DNA of 24,408 nucleotides, taken from the IMG/VR virus record IMGVR_UViG_3300025888_000028, positions 1-24,408 of that record; one strand, written 5' to 3'. This document shows, piece after piece, positions 6,717-18,645 of the stretch (position 1 is its first letter; the number at the start of each line of letters is the position of its first letter). The DNA comes from a virus. Its lineage: Duplodnaviria > Caudoviricetes. The position numbers and the translations under genes are program-made. Below the pieces are notes generated by a model. The model saw nothing but the letters and a program-made list of their open reading frames with translations. It made no database searches and was not told where the DNA came from.

Positions 6717-8357
6717 TCAGGTGGTCGGGTCGAACAGTGACGCGGCATCACTCGTTGCCGCTGCCTTCGGCGCCTTCTTGAACGTCTGCGACGTGTGCCG
6801 CAGTGGCGGGCAGTCAATGCCTTTGCCGTCGAGCAGATCCTCGACAGTCAGCAGCTGCAACCGCGGATGCTTGCCCCAGGGCGAGGTGTAGAAGCCGGCC
6901 GTCGCCGCTTCCTCGCGCATGGGCTTCGTCGTCTCCTGCATGCTGATCAGCACGCCGATCACGGCCTCTTCCCGGTCGACTACGCCGCGCAGCTCGTGCA
7001 CGTGTGCCCGGCCCGTGTGGCCAGCCTTCACGCTGATGATGATCTGCTTCACGTCGCCGCTGTCGCCCTCGTGGAAGTAGATCCGCCCGTCGATGCCCCT
7101 GTCGGCGCCTTTCTTGCGCTCGACGCCGCGGGCGTGCACCTGGTCGAGTGCCCACCACTGGAACTGGTAGGGGTCGGCCGCGGCGAGCACCTTAGCGTCG
7201 GAGACGCTGGCCGGCTCGCCAATGACCTCGTAGGTCTCATCGACACTCTCGCCATAGGCGTCTCGCAGGCGCCGGCGGATGAGGGCGATCGCAAGGTAGG
7301 TAACGTCGATGCCGATCCACGGTCGACCGAGCTTCTGAGCCGCGTCGACCGCGGTGCCGCAGCCACAGAAGGGGTCGAGAACGACGTCGCCTTCGTTGCT
7401 GGAAGCTCGGATGATGCGCTCGAGGAGGGCCTCTGGCTTCTGCGTCGGGTAGCCAAGGCGCTCTGCGGCTTGCGAGCCGATGGCCGGAATGTCGTCCCAC
7501 AGGCTCTGGAGTCTCACTCCCTGCGATTCGTCGAGGTACATCTTGAGCCTAAGAGCGCCCCCCGCCTTGGCCGGAAAGTGCAGCCGCCCCTCTCTGTCGT
7601 ACTTGCGCAGGCGCACCTCGTCACACCCCCAGCCGTTTGGATGAGGCTGGTACGTCACGCCGTTGCTCGCGGTGTACGGGAAATGCAGGTTCGGACGTTG
7701 GCCGGGGTTCCGCAGCGTGACCGACTGCCAGCGCCGGCCATCGGGATCGGAGTACTTGAAGGTGCGCTCGATGTAGTCCAGGGCGAAGGCTGTGTAGAGC
7801 TGATTCCAGGTGTAGGCCCCCGTCTTCGTGTAGACCAAGATCGTGTCGCAGACGGCTCCGAAGCTGCGGCTCACATTGCCGTGGCTGTGCGTGCGCTTCC
7901 AGGTGATCTCGTTGAGGAAGCTCCTTGGGTCGAAGACTGCGTCCATGAGAACGCGCAGGTACGCGCTGGCTGTGTCGTCGCAGTGCAGGTACAGGCTGCC
8001 GGTCGGCTTCAGCGCACGCCGCAGCTCCACGAGCCGCGGCGCCATCATCGCCAGGTAGGCCATCATGTTGCTCGTGCCGAGCAGCTTGCGCAGCGCCTGC
8101 ATGGCGACCGACACCTGGCCTCCCTCGACGATCATCGCCTCGAGCGCGAGCTCGGCCTCCATGCTCCAGGTCCAGGTGTCCTCGAAGGCATGGATCTGCG
8201 AGGATGCCTGCTCGCCGGAGTGCTCCTTGAACAGCACGTTGTAGTTGGCGTTGCTGTTGAAGGGTGGGTCGAGGTAGACGAGGTCGACCGACTCGTCGGC
8301 GACGTAGCGCCGGAGGATGTCGAGGTTGTCGCCGTAGTAGAGGGTGTTGGCGGGCAA
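6717..8357 (-). CDS. Beta-class amino (N6-A/N4-C) DNA methyltransferase fused to an Mrr-like restriction endonuclease domain
   Basis: LYYGDNL, motif [20 protein letters not shown], motif [12 protein letters not shown]-terminal [11 protein letters not shown]...IIISVKAG resembles a PD-(D/E)xK core. Start TTG 8357 or GTG 8384. Confidence 0.9.
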
Positions 8358-8359
8358 AG

Positions 8360-9106
8360 CTATCCGGCGACTCTCTCCAGCCACGGTGCTCTGTTCTGCC
8401 AGAACACGAGGGAGGACACCTGCTGCAGGAGATTCTGGGTGTCCTCTCTGACCGCCTCGCCTCTGTCGTCGATGAGCGAGATGCGACCGTAGCCATTCGT
8501 GTGCATGAGGTCCCCGAACTCCGCATAGACCGCCACGGCGCGGTTCCACATCGACTCCGCAGCAACGGGCTCAACGACGGCATGCTGGGAGACCACGTAG
8601 AGGCTCGGCTTGTGCTCGTGACCTGACGCGCCGACGATTCGATGGTTGCGCTCGATCTCAACCCCCTTGCCCGCGAGCTCCTGTGCGACCTCCTCCGTGA
8701 AGTCCTTCCGCGCCTTCTCCGGTTTGGCCAGCTCATACCCGACGGCGTCGGCGAGCTGCAGGGAAGCCGTGGCCACACGCCAAACCGCATCGCCGATGCC
8801 GTCGCCGCTCACGGTCGCCGAGATGCGCCCGTTCTGAAAGACCAGCCCGAGACTCCCGCAGATGTCCTGTCCCACCCGCAGCAGTGTCGCGGATCGCTTC
8901 TGAAGTCTCTGAACCGCAACGGACGTGCCTTGGCTGTAGTCGGTGACCTCGAGAACCCCATCGTGGTCAGTGATGAACACAGTGACGCTGTCTCCGTCTG
9001 GGTAGTAGAGAGCAGTGTCGCAGACGAGGCGGTCGTCGAGGACACTGCACTCGACCTCATCACTGAGGTGGCTCAGCAGGGCATCGGCTACGACCTGGGG
9101 GTTCAC
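8360..9106 (-). CDS. DUF1828/DUF1829-like protein
   Basis: [15 protein letters not shown]...VTDYSQG N-terminal pattern and [10 protein letters not shown]-terminal pattern; GAGGAGG RBS; GTGA overlap. Confidence 0.7.
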
Positions 9107-9671: not shown

Positions 9672-10433
9672 CTACTTCTCCACCTCGAACCACCAACAGT
9701 TGCGCAGCGGGCGGTCCTTCTTCAGCACGCCCTCCAAGTAGCCGGTCCTGGTGTTGAACTCGGCGGTTGTGCAGGTGCCGTCGCCATTGTCGTGAACGAA
9801 CGTGATCGCGTGGTCCGGGTCGCTGTGGCCGTCGAAGTCGATCACACCGGGACAGCCGGGGTCGGGGTCGCTGGTCAAGTGGATGCCGTTACGGTCCGCC
9901 TGAGCGTCGGAAAGCATGAGGTCGGTGCCGGCCCAGCGAGAGCCCCTCTTGAACGCCGCTGACCCCGCCTTGACCCATGCCCACGAAATGCCAATCACAC
10001 AGTAGGCGACAGCGCCCCAACCCCACCACGTGTTGTACTTGATGTGGTTCGAGTGCGGAGGATTCTCCATCGTGCCGAGTTCGTGCTTGATGATCTCCAG
10101 AGCTCGCAGACGTAGCCTGGTCTGCACGCTCTGCCGGTGCTTCACCAGCTCTAGCTGCGCCAGTCGTGCGGCGCGGCGCTTGCGCAGAGCGGGCGGCAGC
10201 GGAAGCCGCTTCGAGAGGTAGTCGTAGAGCAGCTGTCCGGCGATAGGCTTGAGATTCGCCTTCGAGTAGCCGAGTCGGTGCTTGGCCTGCTGCACGGCGG
10301 CGCAGGTGAGGGCGCCCATCTGGCCGTCGACCACGAGCTCGCGGCGTGGGGAGTAGAAATCGTTGTTGTTGATGCGCCACTGCAGGTTCTTGACGCGCTT
10401 ACCTTTGGAGCCGTAGTGGAGCGTTGTGGACAT
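9672..10433 (-). CDS. Endolysin: peptidoglycan-binding domain plus CHAP amidase/peptidase
   Basis: TLHYGSKGKRVKNLQ...VDGQMGALTCAAV binding motif. CHAP-like KYNTWWG..AYC...DHAITFV...AEFNT. GAGGAGG RBS. Confidence 0.85.
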   Translation of the reverse strand: MSTTLHYGSKGKRVKNLQWRINNNDFYSPRRELVVDGQMGALTCAAVQQAKHRLGYSKANLKPIAGQLLYDYLSKRLPLPPALRKRRAARLAQLELVKHRQSVQTRLRLRALEIIKHELGTMENPPHSNHIKYNTWWGWGAVAYCVIGISWAWVKAGSAAFKRGSRWAGTDLMLSDAQADRNGIHLTSDPDPGCPGVIDFDGHSDPDHAITFVHDNGDGTCTTAEFNTRTGYLEGVLKKDRPLRNCWWFEVEK

Positions 10434-10462: not shown

Positions 10463-10786
10463 TCACGGTCTCGTCTTCACGCGCACGCGCCCCGCTTGGC
10501 AGATGAGCCGCTCGCGCGTGCCCTGCAGGCGCAGGTAGAGCCAGTAGGCGCCGGCAACGAGCGGCTCCGGGTCGCCGTAGAGCGCCTTTGCCTGCGGCGG
10601 CAGAGTGTCCTCGACCCACTCGGCCTGCGCCCAGGTCCAGTCGCCTGTGTCCTGGCCGGAAGAGACCAGCGCCAGAGACGCGGCGTAGAGCGTGGGGTCG
10701 GCGGGCTGGCCGTCGACCATGAACCCGGAGACGCTCACGTATAGGTCCTCAACGGCACCGACGTAGAGGACAATCTGCTCACTCAT
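10463..10786 (-). CDS. Hypothetical beta-rich virion-associated protein
   Basis: AAGGAG RBS, ATGA overlap; GAYWLYLRL...GRVRV Ig/BppU-like pattern. Confidence 0.65.
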   Translation of the reverse strand: MSEQIVLYVGAVEDLYVSVSGFMVDGQPADPTLYAASLALVSSGQDTGDWTWAQAEWVEDTLPPQAKALYGDPEPLVAGAYWLYLRLQGTRERLICQAGRVRVKTRP

Positions 10787-11055
10787 GGCGTGCTCCTTTC
10801 GACGGCGCTCGCGCGCAGGCAGGGGCCGCGACGCTCAAGGCTGGCCTCGAGGCGCGGAGTGGCGGCAGCCGAAAGGTGCAGCGGATGGGCAAGCTCGGGG
10901 CCGCGTGCAGCGATGGTCATAGTTGGCCCACGGGCGGCGCAGGCGAACGTCCCGCGGTCCACGATCCGCGCCACGCAATCGAGCTTGCGCGCGAAGAAGC
11001 GCCCGACCTGGTAGGCGAGGGCCTGGAAGATGCGGCCTTGGAAGGCGCCGCTCAT
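10783..11055 (-). CDS. Hypothetical protein (90 aa)
   Basis: ATGA-coupled on both sides; N-terminal AFQGRIFQ repeat. Confidence 0.6.
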   Translation of the reverse strand: MSGAFQGRIFQALAYQVGRFFARKLDCVARIVDRGTFACAARGPTMTIAARGPELAHPLHLSAAATPRLEASLERRGPCLRASAVERSTP

Positions 11056-11573
11056 GTCTTGATGATGAAGCTGCGGGTTCGGTAGGGCTGCAGGTTGTTG
11101 TGGGCGAGGTAAGAACCCGGGTTTATGTCCGTACCGGCAGCTAAGGCGTAGCCGCCGCCGCCAACGGTAATATTTGCCGCCCCCATGTTTCCTGTGCCAG
11201 ACACCACAAATCCTTTCGTGCCGGTACTATCTGCGTAATGTACGTGTGGGGGCACCTCGTTTGAGGTTAGCGCGTGCGTCTTCTCGCCGCCGGTCCCGCC
11301 GAGCGTGCCGAAGTTGGCGTCGCCGCTTTTGTAGCCGACCGGCACCATGCCGCGCATGTCGGGCAGGGAGAAGTGCGTCCCGTCCACCCCGCCGTAGGTG
11401 CCCCGGATGAGCGCCGAGAGGTCTGGGTAGCTGGCGATGAGCTGGCTGGAGCCGTCCTCGATGAGCCAGCCCGCGGGCGGCGTCGCCACCGGCCACATTA
11501 TCTCGGCGCCGGTGGGGGCGATGCCGACTGGGCCTTGCGGGCCGAGAATCGTCGCCTGTTTCGACCAGGCCAC
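11052..11573 (-). CDS. Tail fibre tip protein with phage tail-collar domain
   Basis: PTGAEIMW..PPAGWL..DG..YPDL..FSLPDMRG..GGEKTHALT..PPHVH..HNNLQPY..FIIK. Confidence 0.9.
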   Translation of the reverse strand: MAWSKQATILGPQGPVGIAPTGAEIMWPVATPPAGWLIEDGSSQLIASYPDLSALIRGTYGGVDGTHFSLPDMRGMVPVGYKSGDANFGTLGGTGGEKTHALTSNEVPPHVHYADSTGTKGFVVSGTGNMGAANITVGGGGYALAAGTDINPGSYLAHNNLQPYRTRSFIIKT

Positions 11574-11576
11574 GAC

Positions 11577-11813
11577 TCAGCTCAGGACGTAGACATCGCC
11601 GGTCGCGGTGTCGAGGTAGAAGTCGCCAGCGATGGACCCGGCGACTGAGGTCGGCGCGCCGCTACCCGTGAACCACTTGGCGCCGCGCGTGCCCGTTGCG
11701 CCCGCGTCTCCCGTGTCGCCCTTGGCCCCGGTCGCGCCAGTCGCGCCGCCAGCCCCCGTTGCGCCCGTGGCACCGGTGTCGCCCTTGATATTCGCTTGCT
11801 GCGTCCACGCCAT
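11577..11813 (-). CDS. 78-aa collagen-like fibre subunit
   Basis: 12 consecutive G-X-Y triplets followed by WFTGSGAP...GDFYLDTATGDVY; TAAGGAG RBS. Confidence 0.85.
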   Translation of the reverse strand: MAWTQQANIKGDTGATGATGAGGATGATGAKGDTGDAGATGTRGAKWFTGSGAPTSVAGSIAGDFYLDTATGDVYVLS

Positions 11814-11823
11814 GGTGCGCTCC

Positions 11824-12249
11824 TTAAGTCAGTTGGTAGACGATGCCGCTGTTGCGGTCGAGGTAGTAGTCGCCGGCCTTTGAGCCGACGACCAGCGTCG
11901 GCACACCGTCCCCGCTCCACCACGTCGCGCCGCGATCAGCGATGTTCTGCCAGTAGCTGGCGTCGGGCGGCTCGTGCCCGGCGTGCACCATAGTGCAGAT
12001 GTAGGAGCTGCCCGCGGAGAAGACAACATCGTTCGCGGCATAGCTCGCGCCGGCGCTCCAGTCACCGCGCCACGTCATGCCGACCGGGCCGGTGATGCCC
12101 GCGAGCACGTCGGGGGCCAGGTCTTCGGCGGTGACGCTATGCGGCGTGACCGAGTGCGCAGCGTCCCACCAAGTGCCGTCGACCGGCGCTTCGTCGTCGG
12201 GATCATTTGCGAACTCGGGGCCGGCCAAATGAGAGTGGAAGACCTCCAT
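11824..12249 (-). CDS. Fibre-associated protein with CBM5/12-like module and C-terminal fibre repeat
   Basis: WRGDWSAGASYAANDVVFSAGSSYIC...PP..SYW; C-terminus paralogous to the 78-aa protein. Confidence 0.8.
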   Translation of the reverse strand: MEVFHSHLAGPEFANDPDDEAPVDGTWWDAAHSVTPHSVTAEDLAPDVLAGITGPVGMTWRGDWSAGASYAANDVVFSAGSSYICTMVHAGHEPPDASYWQNIADRGATWWSGDGVPTLVVGSKAGDYYLDRNSGIVYQLT

Positions 12250-12829: not shown

Positions 12830-14455
12830 TCACCTGCGCCGCCGTTTGCGCGGCCTGCGTTTTGCCCCCAGCTCGCGCCGCGCCATGAGCCTGTCGAGCC
12901 TCGTTGACCTCGTGCCGACCTCCAGCGTGATCTCGCGATCGACAAGGCGGCCGGCGACGCTCGTCACGAGCATCCGGCCGCCCTTCTCGGGCTGCACGTC
13001 GAGGTTGACGAGCATCATCCCGGGGCGCAGGTAGATGGCCGGCACGTCGACGCCCCCCCAAAGATGCGCGTCACCCTTCATCGGAATGCTCCCGGTCGGC
13101 TTCGGCCAGAGGCCGTCGCGCAGGCGCTGCGTGGCGACCAGGGTCGCGTCGGAAGACGAGTTGCAGGTATCGGTGAGGTCGAGGAACTTGGTTTTCCACT
13201 GCGCGCCTAGCGGTCCCTCGGCATCGCTCACGGTGACGCTGCTCACGCGGCCGTTCTGCCGCGTGTAGTGCGCCACTACTTTGTTGCAGCAGTCCTGCCA
13301 GTCACGGCGCACACCCCACTCGCCGAGGTTCGGGTCAACGAACGACGTAACGATGAGTTGGTGACCGGGCACCGTCGCGGCCGTCCACGGCTTGCGGTAG
13401 AAGAAGGTTTGTCCGTCGTCAAAGCCGTAGTTCCAGTCGAGCATCTGATTGACGTCCTCGATGAGCTGGCCCACGGTGGTCGGGTCGGAGAAGTCGGCGT
13501 GCTCGAGCACGTAGCCGCTCGTATCCGGGAAGTCGATGTGATCGTCGTCAACGAGGCTGAGCACGGCGTCGCGGACGATGCGCTCGGGGGTCACGTTGGC
13601 GCCGAGGTCGGAGGCGTAGACGCGCAGGTCGTCGAAGGCGATGCCGGAGAACAGGTACCAGTCGTCGACGGAACTGCTGTCGGCGTCGGTGTAGCTGGTG
13701 ACGACTTCGCCGACTTGCTCGAATCTCCACACGAGCACAGTCACGTCGTCGCCGATGTCCCCAGCGTCGAGGCTCACGTCGTCGTCCGGCGCAAAGGTCG
13801 CGGGGCTAGTCCAGATGAGACGGTTGACGCTGCCGCCGCTGAGCTTGTCGCGGCCGTAGAGCTTGCAGCGCAGCGACACGTCGAGATTGTCGCCGGTGTA
13901 GTGGAACTTGAACGCCGATATCTGCTGCGTCGTGGGGATGCCGTCGAAGAGTTGCCAGTAGGCGCGACAGTTCATGCCGTCGTGGAGGGTCTGCCCGGGG
14001 TCGCCGCCCTGGCACGAGACGCGCATCACGAGCTTGTCGTCGTCCTCGATGCCGACCGTGAACCTGTCTGAGTACTTCGTCGACTGGTCGGTCTCCCAGC
14101 TCGCGATGATGCCGTCGACGTAGCAGCGGCGGAAGTACTCGTCGTCGGAGAGGTAGCCGTTGTATCCGGTGGCCTCGATGGTCAGGCGATCGGCCTCGAC
14201 GAAGCCGATGTCCGGCTCCTCGACGCGGCCCTCCCAGAGTAGGTGCTGATTCACGTCGCGGATCGCGACGGGCTCGTTCACGTTGTCGGCGTAGCGGCTG
14301 ACCGACTTCGGCGGCACTACGTCGATGCTGGCACTCGTGAAGCCGCCCTTGCGGTCGATGTTCCACTCGGCGTCGAGCACGTCGACGCCCTGGCCGCCCA
14401 TCTTCGGGCGTTCGACGAACTGCGTGGTGGCGAAGACTTCGGCGGTGGTCGTCAT
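12830..14455 (-). CDS. Minor tail protein (baseplate hub/Tal-like)
   Basis: ATGA start MTTTAEV; LLWEGRVEEP...IEATG N-terminus; CNKVVAHY...LRPGM C-terminal hub pattern; lies downstream of Dit. Confidence 0.75.
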   Translation of the reverse strand: MTTTAEVFATTQFVERPKMGGQGVDVLDAEWNIDRKGGFTSASIDVVPPKSVSRYADNVNEPVAIRDVNQHLLWEGRVEEPDIGFVEADRLTIEATGYNGYLSDDEYFRRCYVDGIIASWETDQSTKYSDRFTVGIEDDDKLVMRVSCQGGDPGQTLHDGMNCRAYWQLFDGIPTTQQISAFKFHYTGDNLDVSLRCKLYGRDKLSGGSVNRLIWTSPATFAPDDDVSLDAGDIGDDVTVLVWRFEQVGEVVTSYTDADSSSVDDWYLFSGIAFDDLRVYASDLGANVTPERIVRDAVLSLVDDDHIDFPDTSGYVLEHADFSDPTTVGQLIEDVNQMLDWNYGFDDGQTFFYRKPWTAATVPGHQLIVTSFVDPNLGEWGVRRDWQDCCNKVVAHYTRQNGRVSSVTVSDAEGPLGAQWKTKFLDLTDTCNSSSDATLVATQRLRDGLWPKPTGSIPMKGDAHLWGGVDVPAIYLRPGMMLVNLDVQPEKGGRMLVTSVAGRLVDREITLEVGTRSTRLDRLMARRELGAKRRPRKRRRR

Positions 14456-15147
14456 GCGCTGTCCCTGAACTTGGCCCACACCTTGCAGGCCGCAGAAAGC
14501 GTCCATGCCTTGGTCGCCGCGAAGGCTTCCCAGGCGCCGTAGGCGTCCTCGTCGTTGCGGATCGCCATCTCCGTCGCGGCGACGCTGCCGGGGTTCAGCG
14601 TCAGTGTCACGTCGCGCCCGAAGACCATGCTGGCGCCGCCGTTGATGAGGACGTTCGCTCCGTAGTCCTCTTCTCCCAGGAAACACAAGGTCCAGTAGCC
14701 GTCCCCGGCGTCGGCCGGGGCATCGGAATCTATCTGGACGTTCATGGCGACAGTCGCGGCCCCCGATGGCACGGCGACGGTGCCGCCTGCTGTGTGCCAC
14801 GCATCGGCCGCATATGACGACGGATACGTGTACGGGATGAGTTCGGAGCCCGCCACCATCGCTCCCGCAGCATCGAAGAACACCGCGTATACGGTCGCCT
14901 CGCAGTGCGTCGCATCAGTGCCGTGCGCGCCGAAGACTATCGACCAATCCAGCGACTCGGCATCTCCTACTGCTACCGCGTCAGACTGGCAGTCGCCGTT
15001 TGAATCGGGCGTCTTCGCGCACGCGGTCGCTCCTGCGGGAACGGCTCCCCATGGGACTGACGTGACGCGCTCTGGGGCGGAACCAAAGCCGACGCCCCAG
15101 CCGGATGCGTCGGCTGCGAAGGCGGGGTTCCCGATGAGGTTGCTCAC
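14452..15147 (-). CDS. Tail-associated protein with carbohydrate-binding (CBM4/9-like) domain
   Basis: NLIGNPAFAADASGW...VAVPSGAATV jelly-roll pattern; C-terminal INGGA...WTLS...VWAKFRD module. Confidence 0.7.
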   Translation of the reverse strand: MSNLIGNPAFAADASGWGVGFGSAPERVTSVPWGAVPAGATACAKTPDSNGDCQSDAVAVGDAESLDWSIVFGAHGTDATHCEATVYAVFFDAAGAMVAGSELIPYTYPSSYAADAWHTAGGTVAVPSGAATVAMNVQIDSDAPADAGDGYWTLCFLGEEDYGANVLINGGASMVFGRDVTLTLNPGSVAATEMAIRNDEDAYGAWEAFAATKAWTLSAACKVWAKFRDSA

Positions 15148-16391
15148 CGGAACATCTCCCAGCGCGAGAGGTAGGTCCCGTCAAGAATCAACCCTGGCGC
15201 CGGGTCGCTGCCGCTGGGCTCGACGAAGACGAACAGGTCGAAGCCCTCGCGCGGCGCCTTGATGCCGTGACCCTGCATGCGCCCGGTCGCGTCGATCTCG
15301 TAGGTCGGTGCGCCGGTCGCCACGTAGGCGTGGTCGTAGAGCCAGCCGAAGCGCACGTAGTGGGTGTCCTCGGCGGGGTCTGAGTACCAGACCAGGCCCC
15401 AGTCGATGGGCACCAGCACCACCCGGTCAACGTACAGGCCGCCCGTGACGGCCTTGCCATACAGGCTCAGCGCCGCCGTGCCGTAGTGCACCCACTCGCC
15501 GAGGTCGTGCCAGGCAAGTACCTCGTTGTTGAGCGCGACATTCGTTGAGGGGTTGCGCGCCGTGCCGTCCTGCTTGCGCTTGGCGAGGTACCCCTCGTAG
15601 CCGGCTCCGCCCCGTGCGCGCGCCCAGACGCGATAGCGACCAGGCCGCGCGGCGGCGGCAGGTACGACGTTGTTGAGCACCGTCCAGGCGGTTGTGTCGG
15701 CGGAGTCGAGCTTTGCCGATAGGCCGCCGTGGCAGTTGGCGTTGCCGTTGTAGCTGTACCACTCGGCGTCGAGGTCGCTGTCCTCGGCCTCGAAGACGTA
15801 GTCGTCGATCGACGTGCCGCCGGTGCAGAGCGCCACGCAGACGAACTGCATGCCGACGCCGGCGCCCGACCATCCGCGGGTGACCGTGAGGCGCAGCCGA
15901 GGGTCGCCCTGGCCCTCAAGCGTGCCGAGAGAGACGAGCGCGGGGGAGGTCACAGACACGGCCTCAAACAGCGCCACAGCCTCGCCATAGCCCCACGGCT
16001 CGCAGACGAGCACGACGTCGCAATAGGCGATGTTCGCCTTCTCGTAGCGCAGGTCGAATGGGGCCGCGAGCGCAGGGCTGCGCCGCACCACGAACGTCAC
16101 CGCATTGGCCGCGTTCTTGGGCTTCACGACGAGCGTGTTGACTTCCTTTCCCAGCTCGGTGCGCAAGGCGTTCTCTTGCGTGATGAGGTCGTCCTTGCTG
16201 GCGCCCCTCAGGCGGATCGTGTAGTGATGCTGGCGCAGCTTGCCAGAGCGCCGCGCGAGCTGCGTGTTGATGTCGGCATAGATGTTCGCGGTCTCCTCGT
16301 CCTCGTAGGTGACCGTGCCGAAGTCGACCTCGTTCCAGAGATGGAGGCCGACAGGGAGGGCGCCGAGGGTTGCCTCGAGGTACTCAGGCAC
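15144..16391 (-). CDS. Distal tail protein (Dit-like) with inserted carbohydrate-binding-like domain
   Basis: Follows the tape measure gene; LVCEPWGYG motif; insert FEAED...PGRYRVWARAR...WHDLG...VDRVVLVP. Confidence 0.7.
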   Translation of the reverse strand: MPEYLEATLGALPVGLHLWNEVDFGTVTYEDEETANIYADINTQLARRSGKLRQHHYTIRLRGASKDDLITQENALRTELGKEVNTLVVKPKNAANAVTFVVRRSPALAAPFDLRYEKANIAYCDVVLVCEPWGYGEAVALFEAVSVTSPALVSLGTLEGQGDPRLRLTVTRGWSGAGVGMQFVCVALCTGGTSIDDYVFEAEDSDLDAEWYSYNGNANCHGGLSAKLDSADTTAWTVLNNVVPAAAARPGRYRVWARARGGAGYEGYLAKRKQDGTARNPSTNVALNNEVLAWHDLGEWVHYGTAALSLYGKAVTGGLYVDRVVLVPIDWGLVWYSDPAEDTHYVRFGWLYDHAYVATGAPTYEIDATGRMQGHGIKAPREGFDLFVFVEPSGSDPAPGLILDGTYLSRWEMFR

Positions 16392-17889
16392 CGGCGAACC
16401 TCCCGCGCTGCAGGCGGTCGACCTGGGGCCCGAGGCTGCGGTTCATGATGTCCGTGAGCTCGCGCAGGCCGGCCTTGCCGCCGACCACGGGGCCGTGGAA
16501 GTGGTTGTGGACGTGGAGCTCGGTGACGCCTGCTCCCTTGCGACCCAGCGGCGTGACCGTGACGCGCTCACCTGCCGGGTTGTCGCCGACCACGATCTGC
16601 TGCGCGCCGCGAGCGATGAAGTCACCGCCAGAGGCAAAGCCGGGAAGCAAGGACGCAGGGCTCTTCATGTACCACGGCGTCTGGTAGGCGTCCTTGATGA
16701 TGCCCGCCTTGTTCGCCTCGTACTGCGCCTGCGTGATGTGGCCGCCCTTGTAAGCGGCCTCGTTTGCAGTCGCGGCGGCGCTCTCGGTGGCCTTCGCCTG
16801 GTTGGTGGCGGTCTGCCAGCTCTGATATGCCTTGATGGCTTCGTAGATGGCGAACCCCGCCGCCGCCGCCGCCAGTCCGACGGCCGTGTACGAGGCCGCG
16901 AGGCCGACGTTGGCTGTGATGATCGCCGGCACCTTGGCCACCCACTTAACAAGCGAGAGCGTTGCCCCGGACGTGGCCAGCCTCGACGCCCGGACGGCGA
17001 CGGCGAAGCCCCTCACCGCGCCAGCCGCGCTCTGGATGACCATTGCTCCCTTGACCACGACGACGAAGGCGGCCAGAGCAGCGGTCGCTGGCACGAGCAC
17101 GGGGGCAAGAGGTCGCACGGCTCTGAGCGCGGCCCCGAACAGCCTCACCATCGGCGTCATCGCCGGCACCACGTCGCGAGCGATGGTGATCTGGATTCCT
17201 GTGAGCGCGATCTGCATCTCGCGCTGTGCCTGCACGGCCTTCTTGTAGTCGGCCAGGTCCTCGTCACTCCAGACCATGCCGGAGTCCTTGAGCGTCTTGT
17301 TCGTCTGCGCCATATCTTTGGCGCTCGTCGAGTACCATGCCGACATGCTGAGGGCTCCGCGGCCGAGCAACTTGACGGCCATGTTCGTGCGGTCGGCGCC
17401 GGAGCCCATCTCGGCGAGCGCGTCGCGCGTCGCGAGGATCGCCTCTGTGTCGCTCATGGACTTGAGCTGATCGACGGAGATGCCGAGACGTTCGAAGACT
17501 GCGGCGGCGGTCTTACTGCCGTTGCGCGCTTCGTCGATCGACTGCGCCAGCTTCTTGATGCCGACGCCGCCGGTCGTCGCCTCGATCCCGTATCGCTGGA
17601 ACTCGCCGGAGAGAATCGAAGCCCCCTCCGTCGTGATGTCGATCTCGCGCTTGAGGGCCGCGATTCCGGCGCCCTGCTTTTCCAGCGTCACCACGCTCTT
17701 GACGATGACGCCGGTGAGCGCGGCGACACCGACGGCGGCGTAGTTCGACGCCTTGTTGAGACCAGCGCCGTACTTGCCGAAGACGCCCTGCGTCTTGTCG
17801 GCAGCGTTCGCGACTTCGCCGAGCGCCTTGACGCCGCCCTTCGAGTCGCCGGTCACCACAAGGCGGATTGCTTCCGTCATGGTGCTCAC
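16384..17889 (-). CDS. Tape measure protein (short, about 500 aa)
   Basis: Ala-rich helical protein; FERLGISVDQLK; hydrophobic segments; FASGG...VGDNPAGERVTVTPL tail; follows the chaperone genes. Confidence 0.9.
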   Translation of the reverse strand: MSTMTEAIRLVVTGDSKGGVKALGEVANAADKTQGVFGKYGAGLNKASNYAAVGVAALTGVIVKSVVTLEKQGAGIAALKREIDITTEGASILSGEFQRYGIEATTGGVGIKKLAQSIDEARNGSKTAAAVFERLGISVDQLKSMSDTEAILATRDALAEMGSGADRTNMAVKLLGRGALSMSAWYSTSAKDMAQTNKTLKDSGMVWSDEDLADYKKAVQAQREMQIALTGIQITIARDVVPAMTPMVRLFGAALRAVRPLAPVLVPATAALAAFVVVVKGAMVIQSAAGAVRGFAVAVRASRLATSGATLSLVKWVAKVPAIITANVGLAASYTAVGLAAAAAGFAIYEAIKAYQSWQTATNQAKATESAAATANEAAYKGGHITQAQYEANKAGIIKDAYQTPWYMKSPASLLPGFASGGDFIARGAQQIVVGDNPAGERVTVTPLGRKGAGVTELHVHNHFHGPVVGGKAGLRELTDIMNRSLGPQVDRLQRGRFAGA

Positions 17890-17890
17890 G

Positions 17891-18235
17891 TCACACCAGA
17901 CCCAGGAGCGTCATCACGGCAGCCTTGTCTTCGTCGCCTATGTCCCGGATGCAGAGCGCGCCGGCCTTGCGCATGAACGTCACTTCGGGCTCGACGAAGC
18001 TGGCGGCGATGAGGAACTCGATGAGCGTCAGTGCCTCGGCCTCTGTGACAGGCTTGGCGGTGTGCTGCCGCGCCATGATGACGACGACCTTCTTTGGGAC
18101 CTTGCCGTCGCGCATGAGGGCGAAGGTGTCGGGGCGCTTGACCTTGGCCACACCGCCGCTCGGCAGCGTCACCGTCTGCGCGACGTTCTTCGGCCACTCG
18201 GCGGCGGGGGTCGGCGTCAGGTTCTCGTCGGTCAT
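17891..18235 (-). CDS. Tail assembly chaperone, gpG-like
   Basis: VTLPSGGVAKVKRPD...AASFVEPEV...DEDK; GGAGG RBS; immediately upstream of the tape measure gene. Confidence 0.75.
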   Translation of the reverse strand: MTDENLTPTPAAEWPKNVAQTVTLPSGGVAKVKRPDTFALMRDGKVPKKVVVIMARQHTAKPVTEAEALTLIEFLIAASFVEPEVTFMRKAGALCIRDIGDEDKAAVMTLLGLV

Positions 18236-18645
18236 GCAGGCGCCTCCTCTGCGACGTCTTCGGCCTGCTGCGCTTCGATGCGCCGCAGCAGTTCGCGCTC
18301 CGCGGGGTCCTGCGCTTCGTAGGCATCCAGACGCAGGTACAGGGTGCGGTCGAGCGCCCACGCGAGAGGCGGGTCGGTGAGGCTGAGTGCGGCGGCGGGA
18401 GAACGGCTCCAGCAGCTGGAGACCATCGCCAAGTGGAGCGCCTCGTCGGTCTCGCAGAACTCCGCCAGCGCCCACTCAGCGATGAAGCGCCGGTCGGACT
18501 CGAGCAGTTCGTCGACCTCGACCTCCTCGTGTGTAAACGAGGCCGCGGCGATCGCCGCAAGGTCCCCGCCCGCCGGCAGCAAAGCCGACAGGTCGGGGAC
18601 CTCGAGCGGGGCGACGGCGCCGCTGGGCAGTCGAATCAGCATCAC
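18232..18645 (-). CDS. Tail assembly chaperone paralog with gpT-like extension
   Basis: IRLPSGAVA...PD..AL...AAASF..EV paralogous to the neighbour, plus RSPAAALSLTDPPLAWALD extension. Confidence 0.65.
   Translation of the reverse strand: MMLIRLPSGAVAPLEVPDLSALLPAGGDLAAIAAASFTHEEVEVDELLESDRRFIAEWALAEFCETDEALHLAMVSSCWSRSPAAALSLTDPPLAWALDRTLYLRLDAYEAQDPAERELLRRIEAQQAEDVAEEAPA

Follow-up and report, generated by a model that had tools for sequence, protein, structure and literature searches.

The best explanation for three adjacent minus-strand genes in the window, by which we mean the whole 24.4-kb virus record analyzed here (about 63% complete, 67% G+C), is that they encode a fiber composed of a base, a self-repeating shaft, and a tip joined through completed split knots, a reading that we favor by a modest measure. 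The layout in which the knot is split between genes is real, conserved, and widespread; that the subunits join in trans appears quite likely, and the presence of more than one shaft per fiber is slightly favored. The window sequence was also present in peat and soil metagenome runs. Its minus strand carries, in order, genes for a Mu-like protease, cement, major head protein, neck, tail, tape measure, and tail tip, followed by the three fiber genes, two small genes, and an endolysin. The tail module (12830..17889, minus strand) comprises the tape measure (16384-17889) and three tail-tip-sized genes downstream of it, for which a profile scan returned no family match, and the endolysin (9672-10433) lies on the opposite side of the fiber genes. 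A Gly-X-Y run, matches to tail-fiber PHROGs, and this site between tail genes and endolysin place the product among collagen-like phage fibers.

The base (141 aa; 11824..12249, minus strand) has an N-terminal anchor-like peptide, a CBM_5_12-like middle (E 2.6e-4, below cut-off), and a C-terminal acceptor, and it matches tail-fiber PHROGs. The acceptor occupies its last 36 residues (11827..11934, minus strand), assigned to knot strands 1-3 by alignment. The shaft (78 aa; 11577..11813, minus strand) consists of a donor strand (residues 1-11, with a predicted strand at 3-8; 11781..11813, minus strand), a collagen-like segment (residues 11-44; 11682..11783, minus strand), and an acceptor (predicted strands 47-50, 65-68, and 73-77; 11580..11687, minus strand). 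Its Gly-X-Y triplets number 12, as originally predicted, in a count that includes the final triplet at the opening of the module; the shaft matches Pfam Collagen at E 1.1e-5, below cut-off, and at 0.29 nm per residue the collagen-like segment measures approximately 10 nm. The tip (173 aa, GTG start; 11052..11573, minus strand) begins with a donor (residues 1-12; 11538..11573, minus strand) and continues into a domain resembling Collar (E 8.6e-17) and Gp10_C (E 4e-7), which is likely the receptor-binding end. The two likenesses from which the original prediction set out were both confirmed: base and shaft end in the same 36-aa module, which aligns without gaps (21/36 identical) and stops at the same column, and shaft and tip both begin with M-A-W-x-x-Q-A-x-I-x-G.

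The meaning of these likenesses comes from modules that are not interrupted. With a module pattern that contains no stop (120 of approximately 170 viral loci), 87 of the 103 distinct modules among the matches listed continue as a single chain and the other 16 terminate, confirming the fused form described in the original prediction. The rule W...N-I-x-G is matched by 55 of the 87 fused modules, and most of the other 32 have Y instead of W. An alignment of 46 fused modules shows a turn of 6-7 residues after the last Tyr (44/46) and then a strand, W/Y-x-x-x-x-N-I-x-G, that leads into collagen. This strand is the N-terminal peptide of the shaft and tip; the donors are homologous to strand 4 of fused knots, and both gene boundaries cut the module just before its last strand, as had been proposed. 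The split form also has its own sequence signature, with L, F, or M two residues past the last Tyr in 11/13 terminal versus 3/54 internal modules and Arg-Gly preceding the first strand in 9/13 versus 2/54, indicating a remodeled subfamily rather than a set of truncations.

Several variants of the knot were encountered along the way. Some proteins at three loci (L178, L180, L251) end in a complete knot with its own Trp strand, a self-closed cap, and in certain long shafts (L080:3536-4099, L081:3536-4099, L362) the collagen run is interrupted midway by a second bead, which is of a different type and uncut. The fused knot profile matched VP88 of Singapore grouper iridovirus (PDB 8HIF chain y4, residues 352-386; E 0.001), a chain that was also the top Foldseek row for the fused knot model, and weakly matched the C-terminus of lymphostatin (E 0.043).

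The module was confidently modeled as a four-strand knot of approximately 45 residues, and AlphaFold2 gave a confident paired strand at the N-terminus of the shaft, where we infer the strand with which residues 3-8 would pair. The knot is predicted to be a small four-strand trimer knot and is not pilin-like, contrary to the pilus-like fold first suggested; its homotrimeric state is assumed from the collagen run. Among the trimer-trimer pairs that had been proposed for modeling, shaft acceptor with shaft donor was run with 3+3 chains and passed weakly, with a score outside the tool's calibration. The predicted donor-acceptor contact was accompanied by a change in acceptor pLDDT, which was 57-59 without the donor and 79-81 with it. 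Of the idea that the N-terminal peptide completes the C-terminal domain of a neighbor, the identity of the donor with the last knot strand is supported, AlphaFold2 agrees through the paired strand, and the complex model lends weak support.

Under the proposed mechanism, the three genes would yield one collagen-like fiber in which each of the two gene boundaries separates strand 4 of a trimer-forming knot from strands 1-3. Each protein would trimerize, leaving three empty strand positions in its C-terminal knot, and the three N-terminal donors of the next trimer would fill the previous knot and then continue into the collagen helix. With a donor at one end and an acceptor at the other, the shaft would be able to join its own kind, so that several copies would stack between a single base and a single tip. 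The base, which lacks a donor, would nucleate the chain, and the tip, which lacks an acceptor, would cap it. We infer the order base, shaft(n), tip, with fiber length set by the shaft:tip ratio. A broader proposal is that this represents a widespread phage 'collagen pilus' in which a shaft that can be as small as 50-80 residues polymerizes by chaperone-free three-strand exchange from an acceptor-only base and is stopped by any protein tagged with a 10-residue donor, with length following translation rates and heads swapped by the gain of one short N-terminal peptide; we advance this version tentatively, as possible but short of favored.

The base would dock on the tail through its N-terminus, for which its N-terminal peptide and a BppU_N-like gene are candidates. 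This 107-aa gene and a 90-aa gene (10783-11055) together occupy 10463..11055 on the minus strand and are candidate docking adaptors; the BppU_N assignment is a lead only (Atlas score 0.96, BppU_N on 12% of one cluster). By eye, genes resembling the pair in size and character lie directly upstream of the base in NBR1, KYD2, EmiRose, L298, and L362. Also by eye, the Phe-rich start of the 90-aa gene (minus strand) resembles the start of the base at L121, and a 295-aa gene adjoining the L121 base starts like the base of the window. From these sequences, two N-terminal anchor types seem to be shuffled among fiber genes. Elsewhere in the window, two minus-strand genes directly upstream of the tape measure (17891-18235 and 18232-18645) overlap by ATGA and have similar starts by eye (LPSG-x-VA-xxxx-PD); instead of a frameshift pair, they could be tail assembly chaperones that are paralogs. 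A DNA methyltransferase gene (6717-8549, minus strand), with NCBIfam adenine-specific methyltransferase matches below cut-off, lies between the endolysin and the early genes.

The same split, which the original prediction had proposed to seek in related phages, was found and is conserved across them. The ten base homologues (42-81% identical, 131-150 aa) all terminate at one common column, and a shaft search returned 133 proteins, with 57 of the 120 listed fitting a loose rule of donor start and acceptor end (57-136 aa). Across the fetched loci there were 300 acceptor-ending ORFs, 136 of them distinct and one of these at an edge, and the next gene had a donor start in 107/135 cases, compared to 48/671 for other ORF ends, many of which represent overlapping frames or acceptors with longer tails. 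Acceptor-then-donor order persisted in 93/113 cases once donor-pattern loci and the window's own copies were left aside. In the reciprocal scan, which is looser than the acceptor scan, an acceptor-ending gene precedes 45 of the 76 distinct donor starts; of the others, 7 belong to genes that themselves carry a terminal acceptor and 24 show neither arrangement, several of them lying behind an acceptor with a longer tail. Altogether 38 distinct acceptor-shaft-donor triplets were found; most of the loci had been retrieved with patterns based on the shaft, and they lack phylogenetic independence.

The layout occurs in the cultured phages NBR1 and KYD2 (Nocardia) and EmiRose (Corynebacterium), the shaft of PMBT6 (Bifidobacterium) is 88% identical to that of one locus, and genome matches include Corynebacterium, Mycobacterium, Alcaligenaceae, and many Cyanobium/Synechococcus. 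Variants include loci in which no shaft intervenes between base and tip, loci with two shaft genes (L099, L104, L298), and, in cyanobacteria, the order base-tip-shaft. In L371, L348, L351, L373, and other Cyanobium/Synechococcus loci, base, tip, and shaft are three genes behind the major head protein gene, an order and site that suggest a head fiber, and some of these loci carry two or three different tips. The heads of 69 donor-start genes include Collar, Gp10_C, GDSL esterase, beta-helix, Mtd second domain, Phage_tail_C, BppL_N, and DUF7298, and 34 of the 69 had no Pfam match.

Whether the shaft repeats is a separate matter from whether the joint is real. In a fixed chain of one base, one shaft, and one tip trimer, the joint would be genuine, the split would serve tip swapping rather than length, and order would be set by small acceptor differences or by co-translational assembly; we regard this as rather unlikely, though well worth keeping in view. 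Base and shaft acceptors do differ as classes (similarity 47.7 for base-shaft versus 53.7 for shaft-shaft), and the many shafts of 150-250 aa and the loci with two shaft genes fit a fixed chain equally well. Repetition of the shaft is instead favored by the shaft-shaft model, weak as its pass was, by loci in which the shaft is not between base and tip or is encoded after the tip, and by the likeness of the shaft and tip donors, and of the two acceptors, within a locus compared to shuffled pairs. Moreover, some shafts are only 50-54 aa and nearly collagen-free, and would bring little gain as single spacers. Translation signals point in the same direction: the TAAGGAG ribosome-binding site of the shaft (11820..11826, minus strand) overlaps the base stop codon and gives an anti-SD duplex of -8.4 kcal/mol, compared to -2.1 for the tip and -1.7 for the base, consistent with the originally noted contrast between a strong shaft site and a weak GTG tip. 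Across 36 loci, which are not independent of one another, the shaft SD is stronger than that of the tip in 25 and weaker in 10 (Wilcoxon p 0.001). The latter 10 loci and the long shafts count against the best explanation, as do an excess of in-frame junctions into tips, the 28/135 acceptor genes without an adjoining donor gene, and the 24/76 unpaired donor starts.

The in-frame excess bears on a further reading, in which readthrough of the shaft TGA makes the tip at least partly, as a low-rate shaft-tip fusion with an intact knot, and only the base-shaft and shaft-shaft joints form in trans. At the shaft-tip junction of the window (11574..11579, minus strand), TGA and one codon (3 nt) precede the GTG in frame, so that readthrough may occur there; it would yield a 7-residue loop, within the 6-7 of fused modules, and the tip SD is weak. 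The base-shaft junction, by comparison, is a stop plus 10 nt, out of frame. Junctions are in frame and open at 10/38 base-shaft, 23/44 shaft-tip, and 10/22 base-tip sites, those into tips being in frame more often than one in three, and spacers are divisible by three in 49/107 cases overall (p 0.008). However, the remaining 21/44 shaft-tip junctions lack an open in-frame connection, each of the three stop codons is represented, and L121, with a similar base, shaft, and Collar tip, has its tip ATG one base after the shaft stop and out of frame, indicating that readthrough cannot be the general rule. The acceptor module was not found in 39 longer relatives of the tip, and the in-frame excess may be a relic of a nonsense change that created the split; we consider readthrough improbable. 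We give a similarly small chance to a three-strand unit that trimerizes alone, the N-terminal peptide merely starting the collagen helix, so that three separate short fibers dock independently. A hydrophobic residue in terminal acceptors, at the position of a Lys in fused knots, could close the core without a partner, and the acceptor genes without an adjoining donor gene fit such a unit, but it leaves unexplained why unrelated tips (Collar, GDSL esterase, beta-helix, Mtd second domain, Phage_tail_C, and others) begin with exactly the missing strand behind acceptor genes, and the acceptor was modeled less confidently on its own than with the donor. Finally, the greater number of fused modules might suggest one fused gene that recently decayed, or stops that are assembly errors. 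This was rejected and is hardly credible, because the split is conserved: shaft homologues by the dozen, like the base homologues, share the position of their stop. In addition, the shaft is preceded by an SD of its own, a distinct sequence signature marks the split form, and identical stops occur in other assemblies. In the X2 run one contig spans 10900-12218 with 1 differing letter, and in the X3 run two contigs differ by 1 and 0, with no change or indel at the base or shaft stop among the matches listed; these runs and the source run may belong to one campaign. Two JGI contigs differ at 1/1198 bases and keep both junctions.

The base-shaft-tip fiber with split knots has likenesses to several known systems. 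Chaperone-usher pili also consist of tip, shaft, and base subunits; each pilin, an Ig-like fold lacking its seventh strand, is completed by the N-terminal strand of the subunit that follows it, and TasA fibers reportedly also use donor-strand complementation. The proposed completion would be analogous, but the split knot is a four-strand domain of 45-50 residues and not an Ig-like pilin, its joint likely exchanges three strands between trimers within a virion fiber, and its polarity is reversed, with the tip donating and the base accepting. No chaperone or usher match was found among the 19 structural-region proteins scanned from this incomplete record. The trimerization domain of collagen XV/XVIII and the N-terminal knots of Mtd, GVE2 ORF18, and phage hyaluronidase (PDB 3N3F, 3HSH, 1YU2, 7CHU, 6X3M) are one-chain domains to which the knot shows 4-23% identity, middling Z, and no Pfam match; 0/46 fused and 0/60 split modules, all short, matched a collagen XV/XVIII- or Mtd_N-type Pfam family at E 0.1. 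Fused collagen-bead fibers, including PHROG tail-fiber families, alternate the same knot with Gly-X-Y runs in one long gene rather than three short ones; at L149 and L174, single ORFs of >2100 codons hold 10 and 12 near-identical fused knots between collagen runs.

The original prediction knew of no such phage fiber, yet the base-(shaft)n-tip architecture has been described for cyanophage A-1(L), whose neck fiber gp82-(gp81)14-gp80 self-assembles at about 1:14:1 from trimers arranged head to tail, with N-terminal beta-hairpins of the shaft modeled against the previous trimer (PMC10966104). The architecture is therefore not new; the split-knot joint is unrelated in sequence. As far as the accessible parts of that account go, A-1(L) likewise has three adjacent base, shaft, and tip genes and a base C-terminal domain that resembles the shaft, as in the window. 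However, gp81 is a 168-aa globular bead without collagen, lengths and composition differ from those of the window's proteins, three profiles of the split-knot family score under 2 bits against gp80, gp81, and gp82, and the accessible text describes no completion of a split domain. Split-knot homologues occur fused or split. Relatives of A-1(L) are described, in the available portion of a preprint, as having longer fibers and high shaft expression (bioRxiv 10.64898/2026.02.14.705889), and a referee of the A-1(L) paper raised the question of how the length of ruler-less fibers is controlled (PMC10966104). In the nozzle of podophage A1002, beta-strands missing from a tail domain are supplied by a second protein (gp42 and gp39; PMC13730344), from the accessible text a one-off beta-propeller completion and not a repeatable fiber joint. 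No description of the split-knot joint was found in the open-access literature searched, and a search for donor-strand complementation with phage fibers gave only bacterial pili and biofilm fibers. As proposed, the split-knot fiber operates in the manner of donor-strand pili and of the A-1(L) fiber, and belongs to neither family.

If this explanation is true, it would provide a second, unrelated route to base-shaft-tip phage fibers, built on a much smaller joint than the one in A-1(L), and would explain recurring genes annotated as hypothetical or minor tail proteins in Actinomycetota phages, cyanobacterial and Alcaligenaceae genomes, and gut and soil viromes. Since fused and split forms coexist, the step from a long repeat gene to a polymerizing subunit is open to direct study, and the 78-aa shaft makes the length setting of ruler-less fibers testable. 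In protein engineering, a 10-residue tag able to attach diverse heads to a fiber would also be a useful joint.
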